Of a stretch of 64,000 bases of DNA, positions 3,668 through 56,568 are shown piece after piece. The stretch is from Amphiscolops sp. MND2022 (lineage: Eukaryota): assembly GCA_964187785.1 (NCBI GenBank), contig OZ076410.1:53630001-53694000 (forward strand), in the 5' to 3' direction. The notes beneath the pieces are model-generated. The model was not told the DNA's origin and searched no databases. It saw nothing but the letters and a program-made list of their open reading frames with translations. Within the stretch, counting starts at the first letter, position 1; each line of letters begins with the position of its first letter. Made by a program: the position numbers and the translations under genes.

Positions 3668-4641
3668 TGTAGTTCATATGTTGTATTCTGTATTATTATG
3701 TGAAGAGGATGTAACGGCAAGCTCTGGTACAGCAATATCAACCGATTTTGCAACTTTGACATGTTCAGAAATTTTGTCAAAAATTCTAATCCGATGTGTG
3801 ACGTGGCACTGAGCATGTGATTGCTCTTTTCGCTGTTTCAACGAAATTGGCAGGTACTTCGACAACAAAGAGCAAGAACGAGCAAAAACACGGGCGCGCC
3901 GCCATGGCAGAAGCCAGAGACGGCAAGAACATCCGAAAATAGACTCTTTTTGAGGTGCTAACCCAGGGTTTATCGATTTTCAGCATTATGCTACCCTATG
4001 TAGCGGAAACCGTAAAAATGAGTCTTTTCGCCTAAAGATTGTTGTTTGGTGCTTGGAGCCCCTGCGCCCCAGCTTTTTAGCTGTGTGGTTTGCCATATTC
4101 GTGCCTGTTTTCATGTATTTTCAGTGATTTTGGCTGTATTCAGTAGCGCTAGCGCTAGTTTAGATCTTATTCCCCAATTTTAGATCTTATTCACATGTCA
4201 CTCTGGAACTGGAAATTTACCTTATTCTTGGCATTGTTTTTATATGCTAGTTAAGCGGTGGTCTTTAGAGAGTCAGAAAGATGCCCGTTACTATTAGCAA
4301 TCAAAGACTAGGACCGGTTGGACAGTATTCGTCGAAGCACCCGCGGCCCCGGGACGTATTTCACCCCTGGAGGCAAAATGGATCTGTGGCGATGGGCGCC
4401 TGTCCCGAGCGAATCACCCATTCCTGCAGGTTCCTCCACCTCTGTTAACGTGTTAAGCGACCGATAACAGCTTGCCGTTACAGGACGTCAATCATCAAAC
4501 TGAATTGTTCTCTGTCTTCTTTCAATATGAATAAGCTCACGCTTCTTCTGCACTTATTTGGCAGGTACTAATATAATAACATAAATACAAACAATACAAA
4601 TGCAGACTAATTAATTTAGGCACTCTGAGTTCTCTACTACA
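3668..4641 (-). repeat. 3' LTR of Gypsy-1 (~200 bp once the MITE is removed)
   Basis: TGTAGT...ACTACA inverted termini (TG...CA). Matches 9387-9532 once 3710-4485 is excised. Confidence 0.75.
3710..4482 (+). mobile_element. 773-bp non-autonomous TIR element inserted in the LTR
   Basis: Perfect 14-bp TIRs TGTAACGGCAAGCT / AGCTTGCCGTTACA. GGA is duplicated on both sides. The empty site GAAGAGGACGTC is visible in the sister LTR at ~9421. Confidence 0.9.
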
Positions 4642-11097: not shown

Positions 11098-12930
11098 CTG
11101 TGACCAAAAAAGTAAATGAATGCATTTCAAAAAAATTAGCTGCCCATGGCCTTCCAAATTTGTCGGTTTTCGTTTCAAATCTGACTTTAATTTTGTTTTG
11201 CCAACAAGATGAACAAAATGATTCATTCAATTGACTCATCAAGCAAGAAAATTATAAATGATCACAGCCTCAGTGATGCATTGTTTCAATAAAAGAGCCT
11301 GAGTATCAATTTTGGAGGTGCAGAGAGCTATTTGATTTACGGAGCCACTTTTGAAGTTCTAAAATAATGAATGAGAGCGCTGCTTAGGATAATTTATTTT
11401 TGTGAGCTAGCTTAGGAAAAGCTTTTCCAAAGAGCGGTGTAGAGATTTATGAAAATTTCCTGTAAACGGTCTGATTTCCCAGTATCCCCAAATTTGCTTA
11501 AAGGTTCTGCAAAACACTTCAATTGACATCAAAACTTGTGTTTTATTTCTACGACAATTACACTTCATGAAATCTCACGTATGGCAAGTAATTGGGCAAT
11601 AATACTAGATGAACCAAAAAAACGGAACGCATAAAAGTTTTCGAGCTCTCAAAGCTTTAAATATTTATCAACAAAGGTTTCATGACAACAAAGCGACAGT
11701 GCTTTCACGCATCAAACGTGAGTACAGAAAGACTGGTTAGGAAGACTTAGCCTTTTTTCAGAAGATTTGAATCATCTTTAGTTGAAGATGCGGTTTCGTA
11801 AATTGTGCTTCATTCTGAAGGATAAACAGAAAACTGATAGAATTTCAGTGTCTTGTTCACAAAAAATAGCATTTCATGCACGCAAATTTTTGTGCTTCGT
11901 TTTTTGTTCACCCAGTAAGCAACGACGTAGACATGTCACGTAGATATGCATATGGTTTTTCATGCGTTCGTAATACCTCGATAACTTAGACAGCAAATAG
12001 TTGAAATCCGGTTCACTTCTCTTTTCTTTTGAGACTTAGAACGTCCCGAACTTACCAATTTTATTTCAGTCATATTCAGCCCATGCAGGGTTACACAATT
12101 GTTTTTTTGTTCAGCTTTGTTTTTTTCTTCTTCAGTGAAATGGCACCAAAAATTTTCATTTCATTTGATGGAAGAAATAAACACTTCTTAAAAGATATTC
12201 ATGCCACTAGTCATTTGGACAGATCATATAAAAACGCCGAGCTCTGTTTTTAAAATGAGATGACTACATTCATCTCAAAATTGCATTGTAAAAAAGGGAC
12301 TACTTTTATAAGCCAAACTTAATACAGTGCCTCTACATGTTCAAATGGTATGTAGGTCTCATAAAATAGCAGAGGCTAAGGATTTTCAAAATTTTTGAGG
12401 TACAGAGAAGCGTCCTAGCTGAATAATCTTAAGACTCTTGAGAGCTCTCTATCTTAAAAAATCTTGGAACTCTTTGAACTTGAGGTCGTTTGAGGAAATT
12501 CCTCAACTTTACTTGAAAATCGAAGTCCCTAACATAGTTTTTGGACAACTCTGAAGGACTTTCGATACCTTTCCAAATTAGCAATTTCTACAAATATCCA
12601 ACATTAAGCTATCGCATGATACTGAGTTTTCAGTGGTACGTTGACTATTCCTGTGAGATGAGCAATTGTATATTGATCAAGACTCACAGGGGCCTATGTC
12701 CCTCGATGGAAACCTAGTTAAAAATACACATCTTTAGAAAAAATCTTAAAACTAAGATCTTGCGAGAAAGGTCATTATTTGACACTAACTCTTACAAGAT
12801 TCTTGCAACATTTCAAACTCCAGCTGAAAACGATACAAAAGTTGCATAAATTTTACAAAGTCCTTTCAAAAGTTGCATCGTTGATGACACGAACCCTTGA
12901 TCAACTGCGATTAAGTTTACTCATACTTGC
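11098..12930 (-). other. GC-AG intron (1833 bp) of the GPCR gene
   Basis: Donor CAG|GCAAGT and acceptor CACAG|. The phases match, giving ...SSGST-G-VRNRTE... Confidence 0.65.
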
Positions 12931-13762
12931 CTGTAGATCCACTGCTTCTGCATGTATTAATTGTCCCACTGCCGGGTTTAGCTGAAGAAATGTTGGGTGC
13001 GCATGTTACTTGGGTTAATTGTTGAGCCTGTTCCGATTCAACTTTTGTAGCGGTTGCATGATTTTGGCGGGTTCTCAACTCAAAACGATCCTCATTTCGT
13101 CGTCTGGAAAGAATCACACGTTGACATAAGCGAGCAAAGATAGCCGAGTACAGAATGACCATGAGAAATAGGTTTCCGAATATGAATGAAGTGTAAACCA
13201 ATAGAATGGTCTCGTTGGTTTGCCAGTAGAGTACTACAACAACTATAACCACAGACGTAAACGAAGCACCGATGCTGAGACCTATACTTCGTCGGTATGT
13301 AAGAATATTACTGGTTGGTCGACATACTAAAAGGAATCGGTTGAGAGTTATGCACTGAAGAGCTAGTGTCGAGAGAACTTCGAGAAAAACCGTCAAGCCG
13401 AAGGAGAAATCCGAATCAATGGCGTTGCAATCGCCAGACCCGAAATGAACGCATTCTAGTGGGAACAAAATGGAACAGGCCAAGAGATCCGTTATTGTTA
13501 GAAAAACGAAAAGTGAATCTGAAGCAGATTTCGTCCTCTCGCGACTCATTTTGAAGATGAAGACCATCAACACGAAAAGCTGAACCACTGTTCCAATGGC
13601 GCCACATACGGCAAAACCTAGGAATATGTTGAAACATTCTTGATCCGAGTAAGACAATTTGGCCATCCATTGCGCAAGCTCAGACATTTCTGTAGCTGAT
13701 CTATTTGTGATTGAGATGGTAAAAACCCCACTTTTATTGGAAAATGCAGGGGTAGATTCCAT
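12931..13762 (-). CDS. Class A orphan GPCR, exon 1 (N-terminus, TM1-TM5, ICL3); spliced product ~383 aa
   Basis: Five hydrophobic segments, N-terminal NxS/T sequons (NKS, NRS), LTITDLL (TM2) and ITLNRFLLVCRP (DRY position reads NRF). Confidence 0.88.
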
Positions 13763-14467
13763 GGCAACTGTATGAATAAACCGATGACCAAATCAAATAA
13801 TCAAATAATTGCAGATTGTCGAGCTTTTTGGAGCTGAAATGGAGTGAAAAATTCAAATGTAGAACGAGTTTGAAATTCACTAATCAAAAATTATATTCGT
13901 TTTTTTTTGTCTGATGTTTTTCGGCCTGTTATTACCTAGATTGTACTGAGTCGTGGTTAATGTGAGAACGAAAACATAAAATTGAATTGCCCAATCGTGA
14001 AGGCTGAAGTTGAAACTGAGAATAAATTGGAGTCTTGATAATCGAAACAGAAGGGGAAATATCAAGGGTACATTTTTCAGTTGTGCTTGGCAAAATGATC
14101 CATCAGCGAACAATTCGTGTGGGGTAGAAACAAAATTGAAATGAAAATTCAAAAAAACCAACCAAAAAGCGAGAAATTTTCATTATTTTGTTTTCACATG
14201 AACAAACCAACCAAAAATGACCAATAGAAAATCTTTAAGATCATTTTCCGTCTTGGCGCTGTTAGGCTTTAAGGGAATATTTGGCAAATTCAGCCAATCA
14301 AATTTTCTTACAGCTTTTTTTCGAAAGAAGGGGAAATACGTAGACTCGGCCATGAGTGATGTTGGCTTTGTAGCAGCAACGATTTTCAACTCCCTTTTTC
14401 TAATTATAATTTACCTATTCCCTATTACTGTATTCCCTAAATTGAACTAAACGGGACCAATAATTGC

Positions 14468-14521: not shown

Positions 14522-16913
14522 ACAAATATACACAAGTCTCTTATTCATTCAAAACAAGAAAAGACTGAAGTCTTGCCAACTGTTTCTAAGAAACATCTAA
14601 GTTCACGATAGTTGAGTTGACTGAAAATAACTGATTTTTTGTTCATGACAGCTAGCCAAAATTCGGACTTTTCCTGTTTTGCAATAAATCATGGACTTCT
14701 ACATACTTTCGACGAGAGATGACTGATCAAAGAGGACAATCAGTGTGTTTTGCGAATACAGAAAATTATAAATAGAAAGAAGAAGTTGGAATCTTTGCTT
14801 TTTCTCCTTTGTTCATAGTTTCATAACAAAGTCAAATTAGCTGCATAGAATTATTCAACTGTGGTAAAAACAGACTCCAAAACAGCTCGCGGGCGTAAGA
14901 ATTAGAATGAAACACAGAATAGAAGATATACTTTTGTCTTTTCCCGAAAAGAGCTGATGAAATGAACGAAAGTCTCTTTGTGCTCAACAGCAATAATTCA
15001 GGCGTCACACCCGAGGAATTGTTATTAATCTCAAACAAAGCAAAATTTTTCCATCGAGAAATTTAAAACTGCAATTCAATCTCGCCCATTAATAGTTAAA
15101 TGCTCATAAAGGATTACCGGAATTTTTATTGTTCCCACTAAAAAAATCTAAAGTCAAGTCAGAATTTCAAATAAGTATTAGAGGGGAAAACAAAAATGAA
15201 CTAAAAAGAATAATGGATATTCACTTTTGCGGCGTTTAGCACAGTTGTGTCACCTTGCCCGTAATCAAATTCCAGCTTGAAAGTAATCAAACCCAACTTT
15301 CGATATGCAAAAAGTTCATTGGTTCAATTTTAGGAAGAGTCGTTGCACCTTGTGAACATTAAATGAATATATAAATAGCTGGACCTGCTGTCAAAAGTGC
15401 AATACGTCAGAAATAAAACAGTTAAATTAATTTGCACAGAAGTTATAGTAAAGTGACTTGACTAAAACTATCCGTTGTGAAATCCTATTCAATGCATCCA
15501 TAAATTTGATAGGAAAGATTCCCAGATCTTGCAAAAATGTCAAGGATCTTATAGCTGTCTATAACTGACAGCTCATTTCATCGTGACTCGTTTGAAAGAG
15601 ATTACAAGCCCCAACAACAACTTTATTTGCCAACTTTTCAAACATACGAACACTCTAGCGACTTTTTTGTTTGGAAAATGTATCATCTCGAAATACACAT
15701 TGCTTCCTGTGTTACATGAGGGTAACTAAAGAACGCATCAACAGAATCACATGGCGGAAATTGAGCCGAGTATCATCCACTACTAATTTGTTTCCATTTT
15801 AAGATAAGTTACCGATTAGAAAGAAATAATTTCCGGTGAAATGTTCTGAGCTAATCTTATGATGCGTAGAAACATAAATTGAACAACTGACTTGAATGTA
15901 CTGTCTGTCTTGAACAGAGTGCGATGCTGAGAAACAATTAAAGATCAAGGACTGAAAAATCTGTAGCACTGGTTGTGAAAAAATTGGTATTACCGTGGTA
16001 CTGAATTTATCATCAAAAAATTGCGTCGTGTGATCAACAAACTACATGTAGATATGTAAGGGCAGATAAGTTAACATCCTCTCGAGGTAGCGCTACATTA
16101 CTATGTGACAAAACATACCCTAGTCAAATCTACATAGAATAAAACTTCAGCAGAAGTATTACCATTTGGTTACTGACTCCATCACTCTATCTTCACACTT
16201 TGGTTTTTCAAGTACCCGACTAATAAAATCACCGTTATCCAAAATGCACGCTGCAATAGACGCAAATTTGCAGTTTATGAAGTGACTGAAGTTGCTTCGC
16301 ACGAAATGGACAGTAAATTAAGTACTCAGTAAAAGGCTGCATGTAAAAAATGAGCCAATATGACAAATAAACTGAACGTTTATCCGTGAAAAACACTTTG
16401 GAACGAAACAAACTCTAAAATTTAGCATCAACAAGGGTCTTCAAAAATGAAATGAACAAACATTTTACAATTTAGTTGAGAACTTGAAATGTTGGGTTGC
16501 AGAAGATGAAGAACCTTCTTAAATTCATTTTTTCCTCGAAAGTATTTGCTACTCAATTTGCATGAGGGACATAATTTTAGATAATTGTGTAACCCTTGGC
16601 TACTAATTTCCTAGTTTAGTCTTTTGGACAGGTAGTTTGTTATCCTTTGAGGACATTTGACTGATTTGAATCAAAAATCTAAGTATTTTCATATTTTGTA
16701 AGCATTTTTCCACTCTTCCAGTTAAAAAATAGCTGTCTTGAAGCGTAGAGCTCAGACTTTTCTCGCAAAACCATCATTTGATTTTTCATGTTTGATTTGA
16801 CAAATTTCACAAAATTAACAGATTCCGCTAATCACGGCGACTTTATCCAATATTGAAATATTCCTTGTTTTTCAGTTCTCTGAACTTATGAGTAAATTAG
16901 AGATAAAAAGAAA

Positions 16914-17232
16914 CGTAGCGTCAAGCTAGCGGCGTGCATACTAGAGCTGGGATAATGTCTAGGTTGCCTTGACAAGAGACCATGGTACAACCATACTACA
17001 ACAAAGCGGTCTCCTTGGGGCTTTCTAACGTCGAAGAGGCTCCTCATTTAGAGCTCCGTGGGGACGTGCTGGCACTCTCAAAGTCCGGATACGTCCCACA
17101 AGCAGGTAAAAACGAATCCTTAGGTTCCTGCGACTTCCTACATAATCCCGAGGTCCAAAAGGGTATTTAGCTAAAGTACTTTCTATTAGAGAAAAATGAT
17201 GAAAATAAAGGATCTAACAGATCCGACATCAT
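16914..17232 (-). repeat. Truncated copy of the LTR-like family also at 24467-25170 and ~63175-63822
   Basis: Shares GGCACTCTCAAAGTCCGGA...CGACTTCCTACAT...GAGGTCC with both other copies. Confidence 0.75.
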
Positions 17233-17540: not shown

Positions 17541-18087
17541 TTTTTAGTCGGCGCTTTTCGAAGAAAAACGCAGACTATAGTAGTGACTTCTTTTTTTTTT
17601 AAGACCAACGAACTGACAGATTTTATAAAGAGTTATAAACAGCTGAGCTGACTTCACTGCACTAACAGTAACTGCAACGCTAGCTATCACTGCTGGCACT
17701 TGGCATAGAGGTTAATTAAGCTTTTTGAGGTCTGCCAAGCAGAAGGACGTGGGTTCGAGTCCCGTCCTTGATCAAATTTTTTGTGCAGGTTTTTTCGGCT
17801 TTGTGAGACTTTTTTCGCAAATTTTTTTAATGTCTCCAAAGGGTCCACCCTTCATTTTTCTTCTATTTTGCATAAGAATGGATGTTCAAAACCTCCCAGA
17901 GGGCCCCTTTTACAATTTTTCGGCACTATGCAACTTACCGGAGACCAAAAAATTTCGAAAAAAAATTCGGATTTTTTTAAATTTTTCCGCACGCGGGTAC
18001 TGTAGAGAGAATACTTGACACTTTGAAGTCCTTTTGCTATTTTTGAGCCTTAGATATGGCGCCGACTTGGGCCGTTCCCGGCTTGTT
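17541..18087 (+). mobile_element. Helentron-associated non-autonomous element (HINE/DINE-1-like)
   Basis: T-run followed by the subterminal inverted repeat AGTCGGCGC (17546) / GCGCCGACT (18059). 3' stem-loop GCCG-TTCC-CGGC then TTGTT. No TSD. Confidence 0.65.
17701..17762 (+). promoter_or_regulatory. Pol III type-2 internal promoter (tRNA-derived A and B boxes) inside the HINE
   Basis: A box TGGCATAGAGG, B box GGTTCGAGTCC ~40 nt downstream, T6 run shortly after. Confidence 0.65.
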
Positions 18088-18277
18088 TTGATTATCAATG
18101 AATTTTTAATGAGAAAATCGAATGAATATAAAAACTCAGTAGTATTACCAAATTTTACATTTTCACAGCTAAAAATTCACACCCAATTAAAACTAATTTA
18201 CATATCAGTTCTGGCATTAGCAAAACAAAATACATTAAGTTCTCAGTGGAACAACTTGTCAATGCATCGTTTCAAAT

Positions 18278-18654
18278 AACAAGCCGGGAACGGCCCAAGT
18301 CGGCGCCATATCTAAGGCTCAAAAAGACTCGTAAACCACTTTTTCTACAACTGGAGACAACAAAAGCTCTCAAAAAACTTAAAATTGAGAAAAAAAATTC
18401 CGAATTTTTTGCATTTTTTTCGAAGTTTCCGGTAAGTCGCATAGTGCCGAAAATTGTAAAAGGGGGGACGCTTTTTATCTCATGTTAGACGCTTTGGATG
18501 CGTTGAAAATGAAGTACTAAGTACATATGGTAAAAGTTGGTAAATGTGCATTAATTGCATTAATGCACAAAAAGTGGACGTTACGCGTTGAACTGACGAA
18601 AAAAAACTAGCCACTGTAAGAGTCGGGATTTTCTTCGAAAACGCCGACTAAAAA
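18278..18654 (-). mobile_element. Second HINE-like copy, tail-to-tail with the first
   Basis: The terminal ~48 bp is a perfect inverse of 18040-18087. 5' end TTTTTAGTCGGCG...CCGACT hairpin. Lacks the A/B boxes. Confidence 0.65.
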
Positions 18655-24466: not shown

Positions 24467-25170
24467 TGTAACGTCTACCTTGCAGCGTCCATCTTAGAAG
24501 TGGGACAATGTCTAGATTGCTTGAACAAGAGACCAGTGTCTTACTACAACCTAGACATTAGTTTTTGTTCCCAAAATAGTCTCCTAAGGGGACTTTTCAT
24601 ACGTCTAAGGAGACTCCTCTGTTAGAGCTCCGAGGCAAGGTGCCGGCACTCTCAAAGTCCGGACACGTCCCACAAGCCTGTAAAAACGAATCCTGGGTTC
24701 CTGCGACTTCCTACATACTCCCGAGGTCCGAAAACAGGCTTTAGCGAAAGCTCTTTCTATTAGGTTAATAGTATCTAAAATGAAATAATTAGGATTTAGT
24801 AGATCCGGTAACATCCCCAATCTGCTAAATAACATTCAAAACGACAAAAAATTAATTGAAATCAGTAGTTCCAGCATTCTCGCGAAGTCTTCTGGGTCTT
24901 CCAGGCGAACCTTCGAAAGGTTGCTTCTTTCTTCTGTGTCTTTTTAGACAATTTCTGGGGTAAGACGGTAAAACACTACGTTTTTCCATCGATTTTCAGC
25001 TTTTCTGGGTTCTCCGTCTGTCTTTTCTGGGCTTTCACAAGTTTGGGGGTCTTCTTTCGCGGTCTTCTTAAGTCTTTTTTTGAGTTCAGGGACCTGCCAG
25101 GTCGGCCATTTTGAATCGCACATTTTTTGACTTTTCATCGAATGTTTGGTACCAACTGGTTGACGTTACA
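24467..25170 (-). repeat. Full-length LTR-like element (704 bp), candidate 3' LTR of Gypsy-2
   Basis: TGTAACGTC...GACGTTACA 9-bp inverted termini. Homologous to 63175-63822 and 16914-17232. No TSD and no obvious PPT. Confidence 0.65.
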
Positions 25171-25612: not shown

Positions 25613-28600
25613 CTAGATCGGATTTGCTTGGCTTGAGTCCACGAATGATGGGTAGGAACTTTCAGTGGCAGCTGTCTCTAACTCATTGGTTTCTTTAGTA
25701 GGGCTCTCAAGCGACACTTCGTGCAATTTATTAGCAATTTGTTGGTATCCATATTGCAAAAACCAATCATTGTATGCCCTATTTGCTTTGGCGTAGCCCT
25801 CGCCCACTGAACTTCCGCGCTCTCGCTGTCGACCTAATAAATCCAGAAAGATTTTCAGAACCATCTTTGGATTGCTTGGATTATACTTGCTCACTGGTTG
25901 CTCATGTTTGTTCTAACAATAGGCTCCCGTGCTACCAAAGCATAGTTGTTTTCATTGTCTGATACTGCAGATGGATGGCTTGGTCTACCAGTTCTGGCTT
26001 TGTCCAGTAGGTGATGTGATTGTTTCTCAATATGGTGGCAGTGTTGACACGGGGTTCCGCCCTCGCGCAGTACATCCTTGATGTGTCACACATATAACGA
26101 TAATGCAAGCCACTGGGCGCCCCTCCGCGTATTCTGCCGCCTAGTTGCTGTATCACTGCTGTTAGGTGCGCAGGATCACCGCTACATACCACAACCCAGT
26201 CAGGAAAATCATCTTCCGCACCTGTTTTTGGGTTGAGAGGGATATGTAACTACCCAACTGGATGAACTCCTACGGTCAGGGGAAGAGCGCACCGCGCTCG
26301 TGCTCGTATCAGCGTTGAATAATTATATTCCACTCGCTTCCTGTCTTTAATGATTGTATAGGCCAATAGAGACAGCAAATTAGCGAATTTACGAATTATG
26401 GCCCGGAAAGTGCTCGTCTCGAGTTGCCACAGCTTACAAATTACAAAATTGAGAATGTGGGGGCATTGGCAGCAACCTTCAAAGGTTGTGTGGGGTATCT
26501 GAGAGCCACCACGGCACCAAACATGAGCAAACTATCGGAGCATTGAGCGGGAGCAGAACAGGTCCTCTGTTTCCACTAGCTTGAGACTAGCTATTTGAGA
26601 AGGGATTAAGAATACAGGAAATTATGTTGTTTCTCGTCTTCGGAGCTTCTACGTTGTTGTCTAACTGCGTTTTCAATTGCAAGGATCACGCTGGGTCGAT
26701 GGTGTTGATCAGTCCATGAAGCCAAGTTCCATGATTCATTGCAAACACTAAAAAGGTGAATAAACATGTGTTGGTCTTGTTCAATACCATTCTCTTGATC
26801 AGATGAGTTGGGCTTTAGTATACAGCACTGAGGCCTACTGACATCAAGTATGCCAAGATTTCACTCTCAGAAGCCTCTTTTATAGCCTCTTGGTACAATT
26901 GTGTCTGCTGGTCAACCCAAGTTCTTTCTACTTGTGCTTTTCCACTAGGTTCGGAAGCCAGAAGGGAGAGATGTTATATCAGAAAAAGAAAACGGCATGT
27001 TGTGTCGCTCTGCAACCTGAGCCAGTGTCTCTTCCAGTAGTAGATGCCATGTGTGGTACGTTTGTCTCGGATCTTTCGTATTTCTGCGTACATCGTCTCG
27101 TGTCATTATGACCAGTAGCGCCAATGTGGGGGAAACTGTGCTTGTGCATCTACTGCTGGTGTAGTTGTAGTGAAGACGGTTTATCCAGTCTCTTCTGCCT
27201 TGTTCCTTCGTTTTTTTTGAAAATGGCTACTTGCTCTTTGTAGCACTTAGGCTTGTGAGTCATTTCGTCCAGCGTGGAGTCATCTCTTCGCTCAAGCTAG
27301 AGGTTGTCTAGCATGTTTCCTTTCTCGACTGGGGTCAAATCACTGTCTTGACGAACTCCATTCTCGCCCAACGATATGTGAACCTTCTGCATCCCAAAAT
27401 CGAATGCCGTATATTCATCGACGAGCATCCGAGAGTTTCCTTTGTATCCTGTGTCAGCCTGCAAGGTCTTCAATTTTTCCGGCAAAAATAAGGCAAAATG
27501 GATAGGGCGTCTCGCAGCTGCATCACGAACTTGCACTGATATCTGAGGTTTGGCTCCACTATGTGAAGGCAAGGGTCGCGTGCAAAAGCTGCCTCTGTTA
27601 CTAGGTACAGGAATTGTTGCACGGGCCTGGGTAGTTGGATTTCGCATGATGGAGAGACAAAAATGACTCCCGCCTTTGTTTTCTTGTTTCTGACGGAACG
27701 TACTGCGTTCTTCATGGCTTCAAATTATGCTATCACTTGGTCTGTCATGAAACCTTCAGTTAATCGTGGGTGTTCTGGCTCTAAATACCTCAATGTGCCC
27801 CGCAGTGCGAAGTGATCTATCACATTGCAGTAGATTAGGGATGGGGGAAAGGGGAGAAAGTCTCAGCTGCTGCAGGACCGAAAACCTTGCACATCACGTC
27901 GGTCTTGTCTTCTACCGAAGAACAAGGCATATTCGTCACTCGCACGTTCATGAGGGTGTAATGCATGTTGCTGGAGGACCTCATGGTTGAGTCTACAAAT
28001 AAAACAAATCCTGGCCTTCTGCAGAACTTCTTTTCCTATAGTGAGCAGACCCCTAATGAAGTCTTTGTTGCGGAAGAGGCTTTGTTCATATCGGCCAGCT
28101 TGTTGCTTGCTTAATTTGAGGTCCGGGGTAATGGCTTGATGTAAGGGGAGTCAGCTTTTTGTAGATTTGCGCGCAGCCTTTCAAACCATGGTGGGTAACG
28201 ATCTGGTTGGAAAACTACCCTTTTGACCAGACGAAGGTAATGAGCACCAATCGTGGCTTTTTCTAGAGTCCTCTCCTTTTCCCGGTCTCCTCTACTGGTC
28301 ACTTCAAATCTCAACAAATTGTGATGATTTTTCTCAGCAATTACAGGAATTTCGTGCTGCAGACGCACTGCGTCTCTAGCTGTGATGTCTAACTGCTCTG
28401 CATCGGATGATGAAAGCAATTTCCTGCCTAATCTAACTCTTCTAGCCTCGGGCTGTTGTGTGCGGAAGGGGTTTGGAGTTCGATTTGCGTTGGCTTGCTT
28501 CCTTGCTTTCTTGTTTGTACTGAGTATGGTCCTGAGATCTACAGGGGTTTTGGCAGCATGACTTTCAGCATGTTGCTGTTGCTGTTGGCGCTCCTTTAAT

Positions 28601-29541
28601 TGTGGGTCCTTTTGGTACCCTATCAGTGGTTGTGGATCACCTCTAGGGGCCTTGTCTTTAGACGTGGATGGTTTCATTGCGACGTATGAATCTTGGAACG
28701 TCATTGTCCTGGGTGGTAGATCATTCACTGCAATTTGCAAAGAATGAAGCGTATCTTGTGGTTGTTCGGGAAATTGTTCTGGAAGTACTTTGTTGACCTC
28801 TATCCCAGCTCCCCTGGAAAGCTGAAAGAAGCATGAAGTTCGAGCTAGGTTGCATCGAGAGGCGAATGCTGGCGGATGCAAAAGGCATGAGAAGGGTTAG
28901 GGTAGGATGTGGGATTACGGGCAAAGTACAGATAAAGTGTGGCAAGTTTTGCGGCAAGACTGGAGGCAGAGGCTTGTTCAAAATGCCCTGGTAGAGAGGA
29001 AGGGTGTGGGGAAGTGAGGGTTTGCTTTCGTAGAGAACGTTCTTGATCCATAGAAGGCCAAATAGGCTCGTCATAGGTGGAGTGGGATCGAGGATTGCCA
29101 AAACTGTGGGTTAGAATGTAGTCGTGCCAGACTCCATCTCGAAAACGTGCGGCACACTCGGCAGATCCAATGCCACTGGAGACCGTTGGAACGAGATGGG
29201 GGTGGTCAGTTTGCGCTTGCATTCGTGCAATGAGCATGGCAATGCCAGCAACTAGGGTCGGAGTAGCCACAGTCTGTAGGGTATTCCGCATAAGCGCCAA
29301 GTGATCGACTCGGCATTGATTTCTCCTGGAGAGAGCGTGGCAGGCGATGTTTCTGGTTGAGGTAGCTGCTGACGATTGGTTGTCTTGTCTGATTGGAGGG
29401 CGCGGGCATGCGCTGGCGGGAAGATTTATCCATATTGGATAGTTGTACAGATGGTAGCACTTGAGGCCAGTGATTACGACAATCATAAGTAGGGGCAGTA
29501 TAGCGCAAAGGGAATGCAACAGGACTAAAAATAGGCGCCAA
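25613..29541 (-). pseudogene. Disrupted accessory ORF(s) of Gypsy-2: Cys/His finger, disordered linker, possible SGNH-like alpha/beta domain
   Basis: CWHC...CRVC near 29150-29240; Q/P-rich 28111-28881; LIYCNVIDH...AMKNAVRSVRNKKTKAGVIFVSP at ~27650-27830. Confidence 0.35.
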
Positions 29542-29724: not shown

Positions 29725-30189
29725 TTATCTACCATTTGTGGCTGTTGCTGATGCTATTGATACGTAGGCACGGCCTTGAAGCACTATTTCGGTGTTTGAT
29801 TCGGTGAAATGATCTTTAAGTATTGCGTACCAGGTTGGAAGTATGTTGTTCGAACATTCGGGATCGTAAATGGGAAAACGGACTTCTGCAATGCAATTTT
29901 GATCGAGTTGGCGTATCAGATTGAATAAACATAGATGTAATACTTCATGTAACATAGGATGTTTGTTAGAAGCTCTTGTGAAAAGTAAGAAGACTTCGTT
30001 AGTCGAAGGTGCAATTGGTGATTTAGCTAGGTGGACGGCTTCTCCGATGACTGGACGGAGCTGAAAAATCTCCTCTTGTCCATATTCTCGGATTACGTAG
30101 CGCGTCATTGCCAAGTAAGACACATTGTCCGCAGGACAACACAAAACTAGCGTGCCGGTAATATGTCGGTATCGGCATAAGATATCCAA
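29725..30189 (-). CDS. Putative TARG1/OARD1-like macrodomain (154-aa open segment)
   Basis: DIL..TLVLCCPAD..REYG.EEIFQLRPVIGEAVHL..VFLLFTR..HP..LHLCLFNL..IAEVRFP..W..ILKDHF....IVL follows the recalled TARG1 secondary-structure pattern. Confidence 0.45.
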   Translation of the reverse strand: MDILCRYRHITGTLVLCCPADNVSYLAMTRYVIREYGQEEIFQLRPVIGEAVHLAKSPIAPSTNEVFLLFTRASNKHPMLHEVLHLCLFNLIRQLDQNCIAEVRFPIYDPECSNNILPTWYAILKDHFTESNTEIVLQGRAYVSIASATATNGR

Positions 30190-30875
30190 GGCAAGTAGTT
30201 TGCTCTAGTCTTGGGATGCCTGATCAACCTTTTACTTATGGTGTTGTTGGAGTTTTTGGATGATGGTGGTGCCAGGTGCTCAAAAAGAGCCCTTCCCTCC
30301 TGCCACACAGTACAGCGCAAGGGTCGGTGGGCCATACTGCTGCAAGAGCAATCATGGTCTATGGAGAGTGCTTCAAGCACAGTGATTGGCTTCTAAAGCG
30401 TGTAGGTATGCTGGTCCAAAATACGTATTTGCGCTTGTCGGCAGAAACTAATTGCCACTAATTAATGCCAATGTTGGCTGAAGGAAGTTTTCGCGATTTT
30501 TGTCCGCTAGGTGAAAGCAAAGAGTGGTGTTGAGTTGTACTAGAGTTCGCAAGTTTTCCAGGCAAATCAACAATGTGGTTGGTGATACAGGTGATACTTC
30601 ATCCAAAGAGGTGACTTGTGGCCACCAACCGTTGGTATAGGTCTCGTGACGGTGAAGCAAGGCGATATTGTTTCCATAATTGCTGTGCAGTGATGCAACA
30701 AACTATTGCCCTCTCGCCATCCTCTGGATCGATTTTTCCAAACACCATTGTGGGTGGTAGTGGAGGTGGGACAGCGGGTAATGTGAACTCGAGATCACTC
30801 CGGTCATGTCGCGTCCATTCTTTAAAACGATAGTTGAGACAATCGGAGGGAGAAGTGTAGTGCATCAATTTCAGT

Positions 30876-30881
30876 GTGGTT
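30876..30881 (+). repeat. Polinton target-site duplication, left (GTGGTT)
   Basis: Identical to 52354-52359. Confidence 0.92.
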
Positions 30882-30955
30882 AGAAGAATACAACTGCAAA
30901 TAAAACAGGTACCAATAACATTTATGAACCAGTTAACATTAAGACTATTAAACTA
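30882..30955 (+). repeat. Polinton left TIR
   Basis: AGAAGAATACAACTGCAAATAAAACAGGTACCAATAACATTTATGAACCAGT; 3 mismatches in 52 bp against the right TIR, weaker match for ~20 bp further. Confidence 0.88.
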
Positions 30956-31962: not shown

Positions 31963-32444
31963 TCAAAAATTAGTGCTGATGAATCGCAAAATGTCTTCTT
32001 CTGTGGCATAAGCTGGAAAAGTGGAAAAGTCTAATAAAGTGTTATTCGTTTTCAATGATTGCTTAGTCCTATAAAAAAATGAGCAGTATAAACACAGTAT
32101 ATGCCACAGAGTTGACTTTCAACGGGTTGTAACATAGTTGAAGCTGGTATATATTGATGAATTTTTTGTTTGGTTGACTTTGTACATTCGTTCACTTTGT
32201 TGTATATTACTCCAAAAAACTGCTCAAAGTCTCGACCGAAGCTGTCATACAGTAAAACATTGTCGTTTTTTGATGCTATAAGTAGCCAATGTTCCCCTGG
32301 TTGGTTGAAGGCATTCGTAATAACAATATTAAACTGATTTGGCGACAATTTAGGGAAGGTGTCTCGTGAAAAACATCCTCGGAACTTGAATTTCAGCAAC
32401 GGGTCTTTGTTGATTAGGTCAGTCCTTTGAGTGTTGTCAACCAT
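31963..32444 (-). pseudogene. Adenain-like cysteine protease (Polinton PRO), frameshifted near the C-terminus
   Basis: FRGCFSRD..P, GEHW, YDSFG and Q..ESQLCGIYC catalytic motifs; C-terminal tail (FPAYATEEDILRFISTNF) in another frame. Confidence 0.88.
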
Positions 32445-33765
32445 TGTAAATGCTCGAATTCTTGATAACTTCCCAATTGCGATCGACCAACACGACGGAA
32501 CGCCTCTCACCCAACACAATGAGACGAATTGGTTTTGAAACAGCTTTTGAAAACTTGAGCTCCAGCCCCAGTTGTGCACCAGTGAGTTCTGGACGAATTG
32601 TGTTGTCTTCTATATGATAATCGGCAGTGAGTTTGAACACGAGACAGAAATGATTGCCAAAGTTGTCTAAGGGTATTCCATTCCCTCCATGCTCAAAACC
32701 TAATGATTTGAGCGTGTTAAAGTATGAACGAACCAAATTGTCGTTCAAGTGCATCGGTGTTGCGCCAACAAGCGCTCCTTCTCGGTTCAAGCGAAGTACT
32801 TCAAGATCCATTTGTTGAAAATGGAAAAGATTTGTCTCAAAATTCCCGCTGAAATTTGTTCCGGGAACCATGGACAAAACTGTAGGGGCACGATTGAAAA
32901 TGTCATCTCGGTAAAACATTGTTACTCCAGAAGAAATGAGAAATGATTTTGAAACTGTTTCTCGAAAGTCATAATGAGCTGTTTTCCTCGAAAACATTAG
33001 TTCAATTGTCAAATAAGTTTCGTTTTTTAACTCTACCTTGTGTACTAGTAGCGAGGCACTGACAATTTGAACGGACAAATCGGCTTGTGAGTCTTTCGAA
33101 ACATCGCTGTGCATCATAACAAACTGATCTGGCGCTCGATATAGTTTGACTCGTACCTCAACTCCAGCCAGCAAGAACTTGTGGTTGTCTGCTAGGAAGC
33201 TATCAGCAAGCCGCCCATATAAACTCCACTTTGACGTAAGTATTTCCCCGAGCTTTTTACCGTTGGAAAATGCTTCATCTGACACGTCACAAGGGTTATC
33301 TTCAAACTGATATCCCTGGCAACGCAACCAGCCCTCTTTACAAGAAGCGTTATGCGACAGTTCTGCCTCGACCAATGCCTTGTAGGGATCTAAATTGTTT
33401 GGTGAAGATACAGGTGCTCCGTTCAAAGAAATTTCTACGTTCTGAAATAGACTATGCATCAAATTGTTGACAAAAACGGGTTTCTTGTCTATTTCAAAGT
33501 CTGCTTCAGTTTCTTTTCCGGTATATTTCATTTTGACATCGAGTTTCAAAAACAAATTGACCAAATCTATCACTGTGCCACCAATATCAGTCTTGGATCC
33601 CTGGAAGTCAAATTCCAACACTGTCCCGTCAGCACTGTTGGGGGTGAATACTTCTTCATGATATCCTCGCTGAAAGTCGACTAGTATGTCGGATGCCCCA
33701 AATAAAGACAAACCGGAGTGCATTCCCGGTGTCGGTGGTTCTGAGTAAACAAATGTCTCGGGCAT
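32437..33765 (-). CDS. Polinton major capsid protein (double jelly-roll, PY), 442 aa, open ORF
   Basis: LSLF..DILVDF, VLEFDF, NNLMHSLFQNVEISLNG, PYKALVE, FLLAGVEVRVKLYR and FKLTAD; size and position are typical. Confidence 0.88.
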   Translation of the reverse strand: MPETFVYSEPPTPGMHSGLSLFGASDILVDFQRGYHEEVFTPNSADGTVLEFDFQGSKTDIGGTVIDLVNLFLKLDVKMKYTGKETEADFEIDKKPVFVNNLMHSLFQNVEISLNGAPVSSPNNLDPYKALVEAELSHNASCKEGWLRCQGYQFEDNPCDVSDEAFSNGKKLGEILTSKWSLYGRLADSFLADNHKFLLAGVEVRVKLYRAPDQFVMMHSDVSKDSQADLSVQIVSASLLVHKVELKNETYLTIELMFSRKTAHYDFRETVSKSFLISSGVTMFYRDDIFNRAPTVLSMVPGTNFSGNFETNLFHFQQMDLEVLRLNREGALVGATPMHLNDNLVRSYFNTLKSLGFEHGGNGIPLDNFGNHFCLVFKLTADYHIEDNTIRPELTGAQLGLELKFSKAVSKPIRLIVLGERRSVVLVDRNWEVIKNSSIYNG

Positions 33766-33965
33766 TTTGTAAAATGAAACACGATAAACTACTAATAGGA
33801 AAAAAGATTAAAGGCAATTGGTCAGCAAAGTAAATGTTTCAAGTGCATCAAATTGTTTCTGTATAGGGTTAATTACGCGTGAGCAACAATGGATGCAAAA
33901 AAGTGTTGACGACTTCTTTTTTTTTCTTGTGGCGTTTACCAGCTGGTTCCTGGGAGCGTTTCTTC

Positions 33966-49908: not shown

Positions 49909-50485
49909 GCAGTAGGGTTGGTCAAAAAAGATTTTAGGTGTCAAAAACGTGTTTTTTCAACTTTTCAACGTTTTTATGCAATTTTGAGACAAAAAAAATT
50001 TTGACCAAAAAAATGTTTCCGTACCCTCGCATAACCCCTCACAGGGTGTACCGTATGCAGTAGGGTTGGGCAACAAAAATTTTTGGTGTCAAAAACGTGT
50101 TTGTTCAACTTTTTCAACGTTTTTATGCAATTTTGAGACAAAAAAAATTTTTGACCAAAAAAATTTTTCCGGACTATCACATCATCCCTCACAGGGGGTA
50201 CCCTATGAAGTAGGGTGGGGGAAAACAATTTGGCGTCAAAAACGTGTTTTTTTCAATTTTTTCAACGTTTTTATGCAATTTTGATACAAAAAAATTTTTG
50301 AACAAAAACATTTTTCCGGACCCTCACATCACCCCTCACATGGGGTACCCTATGCAGTAGGGTTGGGCAAAAAAAATTTTTGGAGTCAAAAACGTGTTTT
50401 TTCAACTTTTTCAACGTTTTTATGCAATTTTGAGACAAAAATTTTTGATCAAACCCTATGCAGTAGGGTTGGGCAAAAAAAGGTG
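49909..50485. repeat. ~148-bp tandem repeat, ~4 units
   Basis: Unit anchor G(C/A)AGTAGGGT at 49909, 50057, 50207, 50354 and 50460 (last unit shortened). Confidence 0.92.
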
Positions 50486-50549
50486 ATGGGTTATTCCGTA
50501 TGATACAGAAATTTTAAGTGGGATTTTTTGTTAGAAAATCTAGCTACAA

Positions 50550-51117
50550 TTTTTCCCGCGCCGCGGGGGAAAAATTCAGTTGTTTGTAAGAAAGTTCAGG
50601 CTCAAAACTTTCCCGCGCGGCGCGGGAAAAGCTCAGTTGGGGTTGTGTGTTACAAAATCAAGGCACAAACATTTTCACGCGCGGCGCGGGAAATATTTAG
50701 ATGACTGTTTGTTATAAGTCTAGGCAGAAACTTTTTCCCGCGCGGCAAGGGAAATGTTTAGATGATTGTTTGTTATAAATCTAGGCAGAAATTTTTTCCC
50801 GCGCGGCGCGGGAAATCTTTAGTTGATTGTTTGTTAAAATTCTAGGCAGAAAATTTTTCCCGCGCGGCGCGGGAAATATTTAGATGATTGTTTGTTATAA
50901 ATCTAGGCAGAAACTTTTTTCCGCGCGGCGCGGAAAATATTTAGTTGATTGTTTGTTAATATTCTAGGCAGAAAAATTTTCCCGCGCGGCGCGGGTAATT
51001 CGAATGAAGGGATGCTTTCCCGCGCGGCGCGGGAAATTAAAATGAAGAGCTCTTCATTTTAATTTCCCGCGCCGCGCGGGAAAATGGTGCGACCTTTTCC
51101 CGCGCGGCGCGGGAAAT
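50550..51117. repeat. Array of palindromic TTTCCCGCGCGGCGCGGGAAA motifs, including ~61-bp tandem units
   Basis: 11 copies counted, six of them spaced ~61 bp apart; includes a perfect 68-bp palindrome at 51016-51083. Confidence 0.92.
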
Positions 51118-51133
51118 CCAGTTAAGAACGTTT

Positions 51134-51502
51134 TTAACTTATATTTCTATTAATATTGTACTCAACAGCGTGTCTGTTTTTCCAGACAAATATTAGTTTG
51201 AACGTTGTAAAATTAAGAAACTTACTACTCGGTGCAACCTTCTGGATATCGATTTCACAGTTTAGTTTTGAAAAAGTGCTTATGGAATGTCGCTCAGATC
51301 TTATATTAACCGTCATTTTTACGACAAATCTTACCTCGGTCAGAGAAGCTAGATCATTTTCATCGGGGTACACTGTCTCCTCTGGTGGCAGAACTGTTGC
51401 CAGATTCAGAATGGCCGAGTCTGATGTTGCAGAATCAATAACGCTGCAAAAAGTATTTTTGTATTTCAATACGTCTATTAGGCTCAATCGAGGAAAAAAC
51501 AA
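51134..51502 (-). CDS. Hypothetical 122-aa ORF between the two motif arrays
   Basis: Open ORF with a (GA)n tract upstream near 51865-51882; no motif recognised. Confidence 0.25.
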   Translation of the reverse strand: MFFPRLSLIDVLKYKNTFCSVIDSATSDSAILNLATVLPPEETVYPDENDLASLTEVRFVVKMTVNIRSERHSISTFSKLNCEIDIQKVAPSSKFLNFTTFKLIFVWKNRHAVEYNINRNIS

Positions 51503-52035
51503 AAAAATCCCAAAGTATTTGAAGAAACCAAACTCACATCGATAGCTCAGGGTCGTCTTCCGTTCGAGGTGTATTTAAAAGGCTCAAATCCAAGCTGCTG
51601 AGGGAGTTGCTGGTGCTGCTGATATCGTTGTTGAGAGACATTGTCTAATGTGGAATTTCAACTTAGATGTGCTACAATTTTGTTGATTAAGTTACAAAAA
51701 AATGCGAGTCAATTTCTGAACTATGTGTTTTCTAATTTTTTGAAACTCTAATCAACAACAATTTGCAGTTTATCTCGGTTGAAATCCCACTGTAGTTTTT
51801 GATCGAGAAATTGAGGTAGAGTTGGAGAGAAGAAAGAGAGAATCAAGTCAACTACTGGAGACAAAAGAGAGAGAGAGAGAGAAAGATTGTGGTAAAGAGA
51901 AAAGCGGTGAGTTCGAGCAAAGTGAGAGTGCGTTTAAACGTTAGCAAGAAAGGTGAAGTACTGAGCTGTTGTAGCGTTTGATTACTCTATGTAGTTCGTA
52001 GCTCAAATTCAATTAGTTGATAAGAAACGACAAAA

Positions 52036-52228
52036 TTTTTCCCGCACGGCGCGGAAAAATATTTGCTAGTGCGGATAAATTCCCGCGCGGCGCGGGAATT
52101 TGCTGTTCGGGCAAACAATTTTCCGCGCCGCGCAGGAAATTGTTGTTCGTGTGTATTATTGATTCATTTTGTTACTCATAAAAGCCATTATGCCGTAGTA
52201 GTACACATCCCCGCGCCGCGCTGGAAAT
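52036..52228. repeat. Second cluster of the same palindromic motif (4 degenerate copies)
   Basis: Copies at ~52036, ~52079, ~52119 and ~52209. Confidence 0.85.
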
Positions 52229-52279: not shown

Positions 52280-52353
52280 AAATTGTTTATTAGCCTTTTA
52301 TACTGGTTCATAAATGTTATTAGTACCTGGTTTATTCGCAGTTGTATTCTTCT
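52280..52353 (-). repeat. Polinton right TIR
   Basis: Ends ...GCAGTTGTATTCTTCT and is followed by the TSD GTGGTT. Confidence 0.88.
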
Positions 52354-52359
52354 GTGGTT
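52354..52359 (+). repeat. Polinton target-site duplication, right (GTGGTT)
   Basis: Identical to 30876-30881. Confidence 0.92.
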
Positions 52360-53149
52360 TCTAGTGGTGGTACCACTCCTCGTTCTTTGCTGTCGTACGT
52401 TTTCTCCACGGTGATTACAACGTGGTGCACTAAGGGAGAAACGTATTTCTTCTCCATTGAATTGCTAGGATTGCATATCGCGGGTGGCTGTGTCCAGGTG
52501 CTCGCGTAGTTAAGGGTTCGCAGGCAGGGTCGTTCACTCCCCGGGCCAATCGATGGTCCGGTGTTTCGCTCATGACTAGATTGACACAACTGCAGTCACG
52601 GGAACCGCAGGTTCCACACCTGTATCGTGGTGCTCTGTTTCTTCTCAACTGATAACGTTGTGTTTGCGAACGGGTTGCCTGTTCAGTATTTTGCTGGGTT
52701 GATGATTGGCTCTCTGGAATGTTGAGTAAGTTCATTGCTCGTTCCAGAGTTCCTGCGTGACGGAGCTCTGGTCCTGGTCCTGGTTCGAGTTCTCGGGCCT
52801 CTTCTTGACCTGGCTGCTGGTCCTCTCCAGGTCGCGGTGGTCTTACTTTAGGAATTGCTACTTCCCCTTTTGCGGCCTGGTGGCTGGCCTCTTGGTCGAC
52901 CTCTTCTGTGTGTTGCTCTGTCTGGTGTCGGTGACTGGGTTGGTATCAGGGACTTGGTCATCCGCGTTAATATCTTCCTGTAGTTCGTTCAGGGGGCTGT
53001 GGGTCTTTAGTGCTCCCAAGTTGGGAACTGAATAGTGGAAGTTACTGAGAGTATCGGCTAGGGATGGGGAAACTTGTCTGGTTAGTTCTAACTCGAACAA
53101 TGCCTATGACAGCTGTTCCGGCAGGAAAGAGTCTCGCGAGATGTCAGAC

Positions 53150-54400
53150 GCTATTTCTCTGTGACTCTCTTTGACATAAGGATCAGCTATGACGGCTACG
53201 TTCTGATCCGGCCCAAAGGGCTGATGTGCTGCCCAGTCCCATGGTGCCGGGACTTGCTTTTTTTTGCTCGAAATTGACCTTTTGGCCAGTGTCCAACACG
53301 TATAAGCGTCCCATTTGCATGACTTTGCGGGGACCGCACCAAGCGCGAAATAGTTTGCGGGTGCCTCGTTTTGGTATTATATGGCAAAATACCCAACCTG
53401 CATCGCCTACTGCATGCGCTTTCGCTTTTAGATGTTTGTCAAGTTTTGCTTTTGCCCCAACTGTGCCAGAAGTGTATTCCTACGAACCAACTCGTGAATT
53501 TTTTGTTGTCTGACTAATAGGTGCTATACGAACTCTTCCTTAGACTCAAAACCTCGCGCTGTAAATTCAGGGTTTATGATCGATAAAGGAATCGTTTTTT
53601 AGCTCCATGTTGGAGCATGTAGCGCGAAACTCCTGTTGTTGCATGGCGGGTCGAGTTGTAAGCGCCCAAGACTCCATCTATGTCCTCGTCCCAATCTTGC
53701 AACCTGCGCAATGTATAGACTCAAAGTGAGGAGTGTTCGATTTTGTCGTTCCACGAGTCCATCTCCTCTTGGGTGAGCAGGGGTGGATGTGACTTTAGTG
53801 ACTTCCGACACCTTCTTGAGTTCTTGTGCTATCTCTGCTGTAAACTTGGTCGCGTTGTCAGATTGCACCCTAGCTGGAGTGACATGCCTGGCGAACCATT
53901 TGTTTAGGATTATCTTCGATGTCGTTTGTGCGTCTTTCATTGTGGGCACACGGAATTGCTTCAGCAAACTTCGTGAAGTGATCTATAGTGACTAGTAGTA
54001 CTGTATTTCCTGTCTCAGTTTAGGTAGTCGAATTGTACTAGTCATTGAAGTTGCTGCTGTTGACGCTTTGTAGAGGAAAGCAGGGGTTCCCAGCTGGGTG
54101 CTTGGATTGATGTCATGTTAAGCTCTGCTTGATATGATTTACCACATCACGCTCGATGCCTGGCTAGGTGTATCTCTTATGTATTCTCGCTAGCTTTTCC
54201 CCTACGCCCTGTTGTCCTGATTCATCGTGCACTCTATAAAGGATTTTATGTTTGTATAGTTGAGGCATGACGATCATGCACGGTCGCACGTGTAGTGCAC
54301 GCTGTTGCGGAACGTAATTGACGCATTGAATGTCATCGGGATCCAAGTAAAGTAGGTCTTTCTTCTGATGGTAATAACGCTTCGCGAAGTCCTGCACATC
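53150..54400 (-). pseudogene. Gypsy-2 integrase
   Basis: VHDESGQQG (HHCC region), VQSDNATKF and STPAHPRGDGLVERQNRTL. Confidence 0.88.
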
Positions 54401-55125: not shown

Positions 55126-55665
55126 CTCTGGTAACGTGTCAATGATCCTTTTTCAGTGCACCTAGTCGTTAGTTCTTTTACTAAGGCTATCAGCGTTTCG
55201 ATGCTGTGTGCGGTGTCGGTGGACTGTCTTGAGGTGATATTGGGCGAGACACGCAAGCTAGTGTCCAATCATGGCTTGGTCCATGGAGTAAATTTTCAAC
55301 CACGAAGAAGCCTGGTTATCCACGCGAATCGTGAAGTCTTGACCTGCTAGGTACAAAAGGAATTTTTCAAGGAAGTAAAATACTGCGTACACCAGTGACT
55401 TGCTGCCATAAACAATGGGTCGTGGGATGGTTTTTCCGTTGTGTTCTTGCTCTTGGTGCAGAATTCCGTCTATGGCTACTGCAGTGACATCCGTACGTCC
55501 TTCATCGTTCGGCGCAGCCAAAGCAGTAGCTTCAACTACTGCTTGCTTCACTGAATTAAACGCTTCCTGATGCTTCTCATTCCGGTAGAAGTGCTGATTC
55601 TTTGTGGGTAGTTCCTGCATAGGTTGTGCATGGCAGCATGGAACGGGATGAAGTCCCGGTAGCAA
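55126..55665 (-). pseudogene. Gypsy-2 RNase H
   Basis: TDVTAVAIDGILHQ, RPIVYGS, FTIRVDNQ and HRNADSLS; internal deletions. Confidence 0.85.
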
Positions 55666-55739
55666 TTGGCAAACCCCAGAAACCTTTGTAGTTCCCCTTT
55701 ATTCCTTGGAGAGATCCACTCTTGGATCTTGCTTACTGC

Positions 55740-56568
55740 TTATGGATCTGGCTTGATGCCTTCAACTGAAACTACTCGTCCCGGGTATTTAGTCTCAGTG
55801 TGCATGAAATTGCATTTTTCGGCCCCGATCTTGAAACCCGCCTCTCTGAGACTTTCGAACACTTGTTTTATCCTTACTATGTGATCTTCAATAGTTTCGG
55901 TAGCGATGACGATGTCGTCAGTGTTGGCATGACGACACCCCCGTGTCGCTGCTTGATCTTTTGTGAGGCTCTGGTGTGGATCGCCGGAATGTTGCTGATG
56001 CATTGCATAGCCCGAAAGGCATGCGTCGCCCTTCGAATAAACCTAATTAGCAGGGTAATGCCGTCTTTCGTCTATCACTCTTTTTCAATGATATTGGCCA
56101 GAAGGCCCATGCTAAGTCAATGCTCGTGAAGATTTTCGCATTGCCAATTCTGGAAATGCTTTCATCTATCCTGGGCAATGCAAACGCGTCTTTCACTGTT
56201 ACATTGCTTAGCGACCGGAAGTCACAGCAAAGGCGAACTTCCCCATATTTCTTTTTCACCGTGACAATTCCACTGGCCCATGGCGAGTAGGAGGGTTGTA
56301 TCAGACCTGTTTCTAGTAGGTTCTGTACTTCATGGTTCGCTTTAGCCGTCTTGTCGGTAGACATGCGTCTTGCCCATTCCCTTGGAAGTATAGCCTCTGG
56401 CTCTAGTTCGATGCGATGTTTCGCAATTTTGCAACTCCCAATGTCGGGTTTATGTTTCACGAATAAGTCATCGTACTCATATAAAACGCTTGCTAGTTGG
56501 TCCCTTGCCTCTTTTCCCCAGAAAGTAAAAACGGAAGAGAGGTCTGGGCCAGGAATTGTTTGTACCAA
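55740..56568 (-). pseudogene. Gypsy-2 reverse transcriptase
   Basis: SPWASGIVTVKKK, RLCCDFRSL, DAFALPRID and SIDLAWAFW; YxDD mutated to NTDD. Confidence 0.92.

Follow-up and report, generated by a model that had tools for sequence, protein, structure and literature searches.

A tandem macrodomain module with a TARG1-like fold at the end of gag-pol in a Gypsy-type retrotransposon clade of Amphiscolops sp.

The minus strand of the window, the whole 64,000-nucleotide stretch of contig OZ076410.1 analysed here, carries an old, decayed Gypsy-type element whose working relatives end their gag-pol polyprotein in two successive domains, both with the alpha/beta/alpha macro fold in AlphaFold2 models of an unbroken copy. 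Our verdict is that this tandem acts like a pseudo-enzyme accessory domain and falls outside the TARG1 hydrolases. The best reading, to which we give about an even chance, is that the pair forms an interaction module, blind to ADP-ribose, at the tail of the integrase which, together with AT-hook-like motifs, would tether integration to chromatin; it builds on the observed fold, fusion, selection and residues, and we infer the loss of binding and the tethering. Where a retrotransposon lands is decided by the domain on its integrase tail, and only a few kinds of such domain are known, with the chromodomain as the classic example. A conserved tandem in which a binding-dead substitution known from the laboratory has become fixed in nature would be a new kind of integrase-tail domain.

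The broken copy in the window and its working relatives

The window element lies between a 5' LTR remnant (63259-63738) and a 3' LTR with TG...CA ends (24467-25170), both on the minus strand; these repeats share only 85% identity over 469 bp, and the insertion is therefore judged old. Its fragments match Pfam profiles in the order protease, RT, RNase H, integrase, and its parts were placed by mapping onto a natural unbroken copy from the same genome. Along the minus strand, a broken gag region (58277-60400) is followed by the aspartic protease (57020-57350), a broken RT and RNase H (55230-56380) and a broken integrase with H2C2, DDE core and GPY/F-type module (53200-54265), the limits of the last three being approximate. 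In the linker beyond the integrase stand a cluster of RGRP motifs (52863-52907), which has no profile match and is called AT-hook-like because we take RGRP to be the AT-hook core, and a basic stretch with a Cys4 motif, CxxCxxxxCxC (52586-52657). A Polinton/Maverick-like insertion (30882-52353) then splits pol about 40 codons upstream of the first macrodomain. The original prediction had removed this insert before reading on, rightly so: it has inverted repeats (30882-30933 and 52302-52353), a 6-bp target duplication (30876-30881 and 52354-52359) and pPolB and integrase matches.

Beyond the insert, conservation and mapping place a highly conserved lead-in with an RFKEWT...GLEF motif at 30761-30881, and model and mapping place a shortened pseudo-macrodomain 1 at 30413-30760 and a conserved two-helix linker, with one stop in this copy, at 30198-30412. 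Pseudo-macrodomain 2, at the gag-pol C-terminus (29770-30197), takes its fold from copy L031, to which it maps at 67% identity, and its TARG1 profile matches have E 0.06-0.31; all four features are on the minus strand. The original prediction had seen an open segment with macro-like periodicity here. An open frame of 159 codons, stop to stop, does exist (29728-30204, minus strand), but its first ~15 codons are off the family frame, which is followed only from about 30156 down; the first strand of domain 2 lies in another frame, across a frameshift near 30157 with an adjoining stop. The second, degenerate macro-like stretch that had been proposed is also real: it is spread over three frames with in-frame stops, and domain 1 itself has frameshifts near 30634 and 30481 and one stop. 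Both domains had been placed after the integrase once the Polinton was taken out; the order holds, but they do not adjoin the integrase, a linker of ~360-500 aa standing between. This copy is dead, and the biology resides in the working copies of its clade.

Searched against its own genome (1.07 Gb), the open macro-like stretch matched in all 150 of the 150 loci scored, drawn from 3,250 candidates, and a hand count places 39 of these matches within open frames at least 3,000 aa long. Working copies have a single gag-pol frame of ~3,050-3,300 aa with the module at its end. Three further subfamilies, with 39-44% identity in the module and frames of 3,050-3,300 aa, make five subfamilies in all. 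That intact relatives would fuse the domains in frame to pol had been anticipated, and PR-RT-RH-IN followed by the tandem module is indeed found in L031, L038, L040, L077 and L087. The fusion recurs in a related family from another source, at 29-34% identity, as an RNase H-integrase-linker-module frame (P0316, P0337); this family was not found in the genome itself, where the best of 131 scored matches, from 3,604 candidates, reached 36%. Among the matches listed, which for two of the searches are the best 120 of 313 and of 338, no relative stands outside retroelement-like proteins. In a scan of JGI metagenomes P0185 had no match and P0345 matched one 1-kb contig, and a look for expression of the clade gave 2 short contigs from one run. 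Clade LTRs measure 720-790 bp, and four LTR pairs are 99.6-100% identical, so insertion is recent.

Purifying selection acts on both domains. In the four unsaturated pairs of the 12 compared, dN/dS is 0.06-0.11 for domain 1 and 0.08-0.13 for domain 2, with RT and integrase core lower, at 0.00-0.05, and the linker higher, at 0.14-0.27. That the captured macrodomain is a decaying relic without function is hardly credible: the window copy is broken and catalytic residues are absent, but these ratios, and motifs invariant across five subfamilies and another source, speak against it. For the clade the relic reading is refuted by dN/dS, and it holds only for the window copy.

Two further features of the clade were observed. 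Evenly spaced module matches, 9.5-17.6 kb apart, occur at three places in the genome (G000 C3:36.04-36.09 Mb, C7:28.94-28.96 Mb and C1:34.05-34.11 Mb) and suggest tandem arrays of whole elements. An optional second ORF of 1,100-1,480 aa follows pol in subfamilies B, D and E (L088:2919-7352, L090:3086-7000, L037:5657-8908), with 1,300-1,480 aa in unbroken relatives, and the young copies of A and C that were examined lack it; the window holds remnants of it without a family match at 27482-29312, minus strand. It is ~41% identical between subfamilies D and E, has no match in Pfam, Atlas or PDB, and displays an SGNH-like pattern by eye alone.

Fold and pocket of the two domains

Folds were modelled on L031, a natural copy of this genome whose frame is unbroken, and not on the window copy. 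The tandem model (last 378 residues, 39 sequences) has pLDDT 76 and a pTM of only 0.44, too low to fix how the two domains are oriented to each other. It matches TARG1 through domain 2, the top Foldseek matches all being TARG1 (E 2.7e-9; TM 0.85 on the TARG1 target), and this domain aligns with human TARG1 at Z 17.3 (rmsd 2.3, 137 aligned residues) and with DarG at Z 16.1. Domain 1, modelled alone, has pLDDT 86 and matches TARG1 in Foldseek at E 1.5e-5; its alignment gives Z 12.0 (rmsd 3.2, 118 aligned), with 2AFC and DarG within 1 Z. For both models, Foldseek ranks 1-8 are TARG1. The proposal of a TARG1-like macro fold present twice is thus borne out by structural alignment. Sequence searches reach less far: Pfam Macro (PF01661) matches 0 of the 39 alignment members and none of the window frames at E<=1, and a single-sequence search of the PDB with the domain gave 0 matches at E<=10. 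An alignment profile run against 177,635 PDB sequences returned human TARG1 as its sole 5 matches, weakly (E 0.25-0.31), and a second profile placed TARG1 in the top 5 of 9 at E 0.06-0.07, neither result being significant alone. The profile of domain 2 matches motif-intact TARG1-like domains of other retroelements (96% probability, E 4.5e-9), with a score of 57 where none of 20 column shuffles exceeded 21. The likeness between domains 1 and 2 is weak (74% probability, E 2.8e-5), consistent with an old duplication. ESM Atlas matches, to phage hypothetical clusters at 0.90-0.92, one of them with Macro in 14% of its members, are a mere lead.

Human TARG1 (OARD1, C6orf130; 4J5S, 2LGR), the top structural match for both domains, and DarG (5M3I, 5M3E), of the ALC1-like class, share this minimal macrodomain fold; class definitions follow the accessible text of PMC7050489 and PMC8501950. 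The retroelement module differs from TARG1 in being a tandem, in belonging to a polyprotein and in its identity of only 12-16%. A fold so near TARG1 would suit a catalytically dead decoy that keeps the outer surface of the class and ties up proteins of host ADP-ribosylation or silencing, and the module evolves faster than RT and the integrase core, and in most cases faster than gag, as host-facing domains do; however, the tandem domains are only 10-23% identical to motif-intact TARG1-like domains and the pairs measured gave no positive selection, which makes a decoy improbable.

Pocket residues were counted in 19 family representatives of 25-85% identity; counts from 125 domain-2 sequences were left out for three positions that the extraction pattern fixes. 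The register comes from an alignment to TARG1 that has no gaps between the Pro preceding the diphosphate loop and the last helix, and its six-residue offset returns Lys84, Gly123 and Asp125 with the numbers used in the accessible text of PMC9411070 and PMC5928194. In domain 2 the Lys84 position is Arg in 17/19 and Lys in 2/19, and all 19 have Asp at Gly121, Glu at Gly123, Arg at position 124 and Gly, Ser or Pro at Asp125, the dyad residue of TARG1 that is absent in DarG, whose catalytic Lys is Lys80. Ser-Ala stands in the first glycine loop of 19/19, Ala taking the place of the glycine, as mapped through the motif-intact retroelement domains and not directly to TARG1, and the first-strand Asp is kept in 18/18. 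No columns of the domain are better conserved than these pocket positions, and the altered residues do not vary even at 30% identity. In domain 1 the first glycine loop is missing together with its helix. The register of domain 1 is less secure (profile probability 5-9%, with a score of 22 where shuffles reach at most 17.5); in that weaker register, Lys84 is replaced by Ala (11), Ser (4) or Met (1) in the 16 sequences with residues, position 121 is aromatic in 17/17 and Gly123 is kept in 16/17. The original prediction had noted that neither the Gly loop nor the catalytic Lys and Asp appeared conserved, and for domain 2 this proved correct.

What it made of these losses fared less well. In the available part of PMC5928194, TARG1-G123E has lost ADP-ribose binding and catalysis, gained stability and kept RNA binding. 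The Glu that domain 2 fixes at this position in every representative, and the missing loop and helix of domain 1, do not support an anti-ADP-ribosylation role; nor is the fallback that the module may only bind ADP-ribose supported, since this is the binding-dead substitution of human TARG1. We infer that neither domain binds or hydrolyses ADP-ribose; for domain 2 the loss of binding would follow from one known substitution and the sequence register. Its pocket is probably self-plugged, with Asp, Glu and Arg in the diphosphate loop where TARG1 has glycines.

Some points were counted against a dead pocket. SCO6735 is active although it lacks both TARG1 catalytic residues (accessible text of PMC9411070), and domain 2 keeps the first-strand Asp and a basic residue at 84. 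The invariance of the pocket would also fit a new ligand or new chemistry. The pocket may thus have re-evolved, its invariant Asp, Asp/Asn, Arg, Asp, Glu and Arg binding another nucleotide or ADP-ribose conjugate, or hydrolysing by a new mechanism, and so countering host ADP-ribosylation; four other Gypsy families with intact motifs suggest that ADP-ribose matters to such elements. We consider this unlikely, though worth keeping in view, given the G123E equivalent, the second acid at Gly121, the first-loop glycine changed to Ala throughout and the lost first loop of domain 1.

Integrase tail and insertion sites

The linker between the GPY/F-type module and the tandem spans 360-500 aa, an acidic part followed by a basic part. 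It holds 1-3 RGRP motifs in all 7 representatives, which have no such motif upstream of it, and 6 of the 7 also have a Cys4 motif. In working copies the tail of gag-pol runs from the integrase through an acidic spacer, AT-hook-like motifs and a basic/Cys4 motif to two TARG1-derived pseudo-macrodomains. In the preferred reading, of an ADP-ribose-blind interaction module, the pair would remain on the integrase and now serve as a surface for binding macromolecules; together with the AT-hooks it could tether the integration complex to host chromatin, much as chromodomains do in chromoviruses. Tethering is proposed because of the position and the neighbouring motifs, and the acidity of domain 2 makes a protein the likelier partner, ahead of nucleic acid (net charge from +1 to -9, acidic in 18/19 representatives). 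Chromatin targeting had been offered in the original prediction as an alternative, and the adjoining AT-hook-like motifs lend it indirect support. The tandem at the polyprotein end does occupy the position of chromodomains in chromoviruses. These (e.g. MAGGY) likewise have an accessory domain at the pol C-terminus after the integrase (10.1101/2021.11.30.470311, accessible part); here it has a macro fold, follows a long linker with AT-hook-like motifs and is accompanied by no chromodomain, and targeting is a prediction.

Alternatively, the module might be cut off by the element protease, or act before integration in RNA packaging, particle assembly or localisation, with RNA bound away from the pocket. 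The retained RNA binding of TARG1-G123E, the G-quadruplex binding of the SARS-CoV SUD in the accessible text of PMC2674928, and a long low-complexity linker parting the module from the integrase core all agree with this. An acidic domain 2, unlike 3 of 5 motif-intact retroelement domains (+9 to +10), and adjoining AT-hook-like motifs that favour DNA or chromatin, make it a rather doubtful account.

By domain order (PR-RT-RH-IN), a GPY/F-type motif in 7/7 representatives and LTRs with TG..CA ends, the clade belongs with Gypsy/Metaviridae; its knuckle is CX2CX4HX4C with zf-CCHC (PF00098) matches. Its target duplication departs from the 4-6 bp of that group, being 3 bp. Chromo domain profiles had no match in 5 full polyproteins scanned, and membership of the chromoviruses was rejected because no chromodomain follows the integrase.

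A 3-bp target duplication with TG..CA ends was read in 14 of 16 subfamily A insertions, where the chance per site is 0.02; none of the 16 had 4 or 5 bp, one had 6 bp and one was unreadable. Subfamily D gave 2/2, C 1/2 and E 0/2, one E insertion with a single mismatch and one with no clear call. The loci read for the clade are L093-L122, L079/L080, L088/L089 and L135/L136. Control families had a 5-bp duplication in 2/5 and no clear length in 3. The accessible text of PMC12440569 gives a 4-6 bp rule, with Troyka alone making 3-bp duplications. Troyka also shares the single gag-pol frame; membership was rejected on the TG..CA ends, the GPY/F-type motif and the CX2CX4HX4C knuckle of our clade, with its LTRs of the length given above, vs CG..CG termini, no GPY/F motif and a CX2CX8-10HX4C knuckle in Troyka. 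The word 'macro' is absent from the accessible text of that paper. A geometry of 3 bp and TG..CA falls outside the 4-6 bp rule as that text states it, so tools requiring 4-6 bp could miss an abundant family.

The duplications are AT-rich: 14% of their bases (6/42) are G or C, and the flanks have 36% (P 0.002). In the nearest 10 bp around the insertion sites GC does not differ from background (0.34 vs 0.36, P 0.26). The low GC of the duplications was counted for the tethering reading; the ordinary GC of the nearest 10 bp, and the fact that integrases commonly give AT-rich duplications, were counted against it. The 34 flanks of young copies had no repeat in common among those compared and no common target, and tRNA genes were absent from 30/30 insertion loci.

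Motif-intact domains in other Gypsy families and known systems

In a Macro search of the same genome 294 candidates came up, of which 150 were scored and 24 matched; among 20 loci examined, 3 were host-gene-like and 17 were Gypsy copies in four families (L048-L070). Each family has a single TARG1-like domain, after the integrase in two, between RNase H and integrase in another and between protease and RT in the last, and Lys, glycine loop and Asp are kept in 5/5 representatives. These four families are better candidates than the tandem for the anti-ADP-ribosylation idea. Their RT-RH is 22-35% identical to that of the tandem clade, which forms one group (100/97) in a tree of 9 elements, all from this genome; no donor or order of events can be drawn from it because of its long branches and lack of an outgroup. 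One genome with both tandem and intact domains affords an internal comparison, and makes animal ADP-ribosylation against retrotransposons testable. Some insect retroelement proteins have database annotations of Poa1p-like macrodomains, so that a single intact domain in Gypsy pol is probably no novelty. Two of the four families have a weak dUTPase match (E 0.003-0.03). In the family with its macrodomain between RNase H and integrase, an ORF after pol (L068:2-1213) has a signal-peptide-like start and is possibly envelope-like, with a sub-threshold Pfam match (E 0.096).

Basta et al. reportedly described macro domain ORFs in fish epsilon-like endogenous retroviruses in 2009. These elements, compared here through the accessible text of the citing paper PMC4977317, are likewise reverse-transcribing elements with a captured macrodomain, but they are Retroviridae and not Gypsy. 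SUD-N and SUD-M of SARS-CoV nsp3 are likewise tandem macrodomain folds in a viral polyprotein, and SUD has no ADP-ribose binding in the available part of PMC2674928; there it binds G-quadruplexes through lysines, whereas domain 2 is acidic. The modelled folds make an origin independent of SUD likely (Z 7-8 vs 12-17 for TARG1). As far as these partial sources go, macro domains in retroelements, ADP-ribose-blind tandems (SUD) and C-terminal targeting domains (chromoviruses) are each already known. The literature searched, with thin coverage of subscription papers, Repbase Reports and supplements, did not describe any Gypsy element with a TARG1-like or tandem macrodomain.

Taken further, this would be an undescribed LTR lineage of 3-bp/TG..CA geometry whose integrase has a tandem pseudo-macrodomain as its tether, and this tether would be a targeting module of a new class, made from an ADP-ribose eraser. 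Together with the four intact families, it might record host defence by ADP-ribosylation and a counter-defence enzyme later recycled for docking. We offer this wider account tentatively and well short of an even chance.

Several other features were seen in the window. The Polinton-like insert has degenerate pPolB and integrase and a capsid-like frame (32437-33807), with tandem 61-bp and 148-bp repeats carrying GC-rich palindromes near its right end (49916-52228). A short fragment of a related LTR, a solo-LTR remnant, lies at 16910-17209. Nested inverted repeats at 1199-4414 and 17904-18466 suggest a DNA transposon of ~3.2 kb and a MITE of ~560 bp, and an open frame of a host-type rhodopsin-family GPCR is found at 12917-13792 (PF00001, E 6.5e-7).
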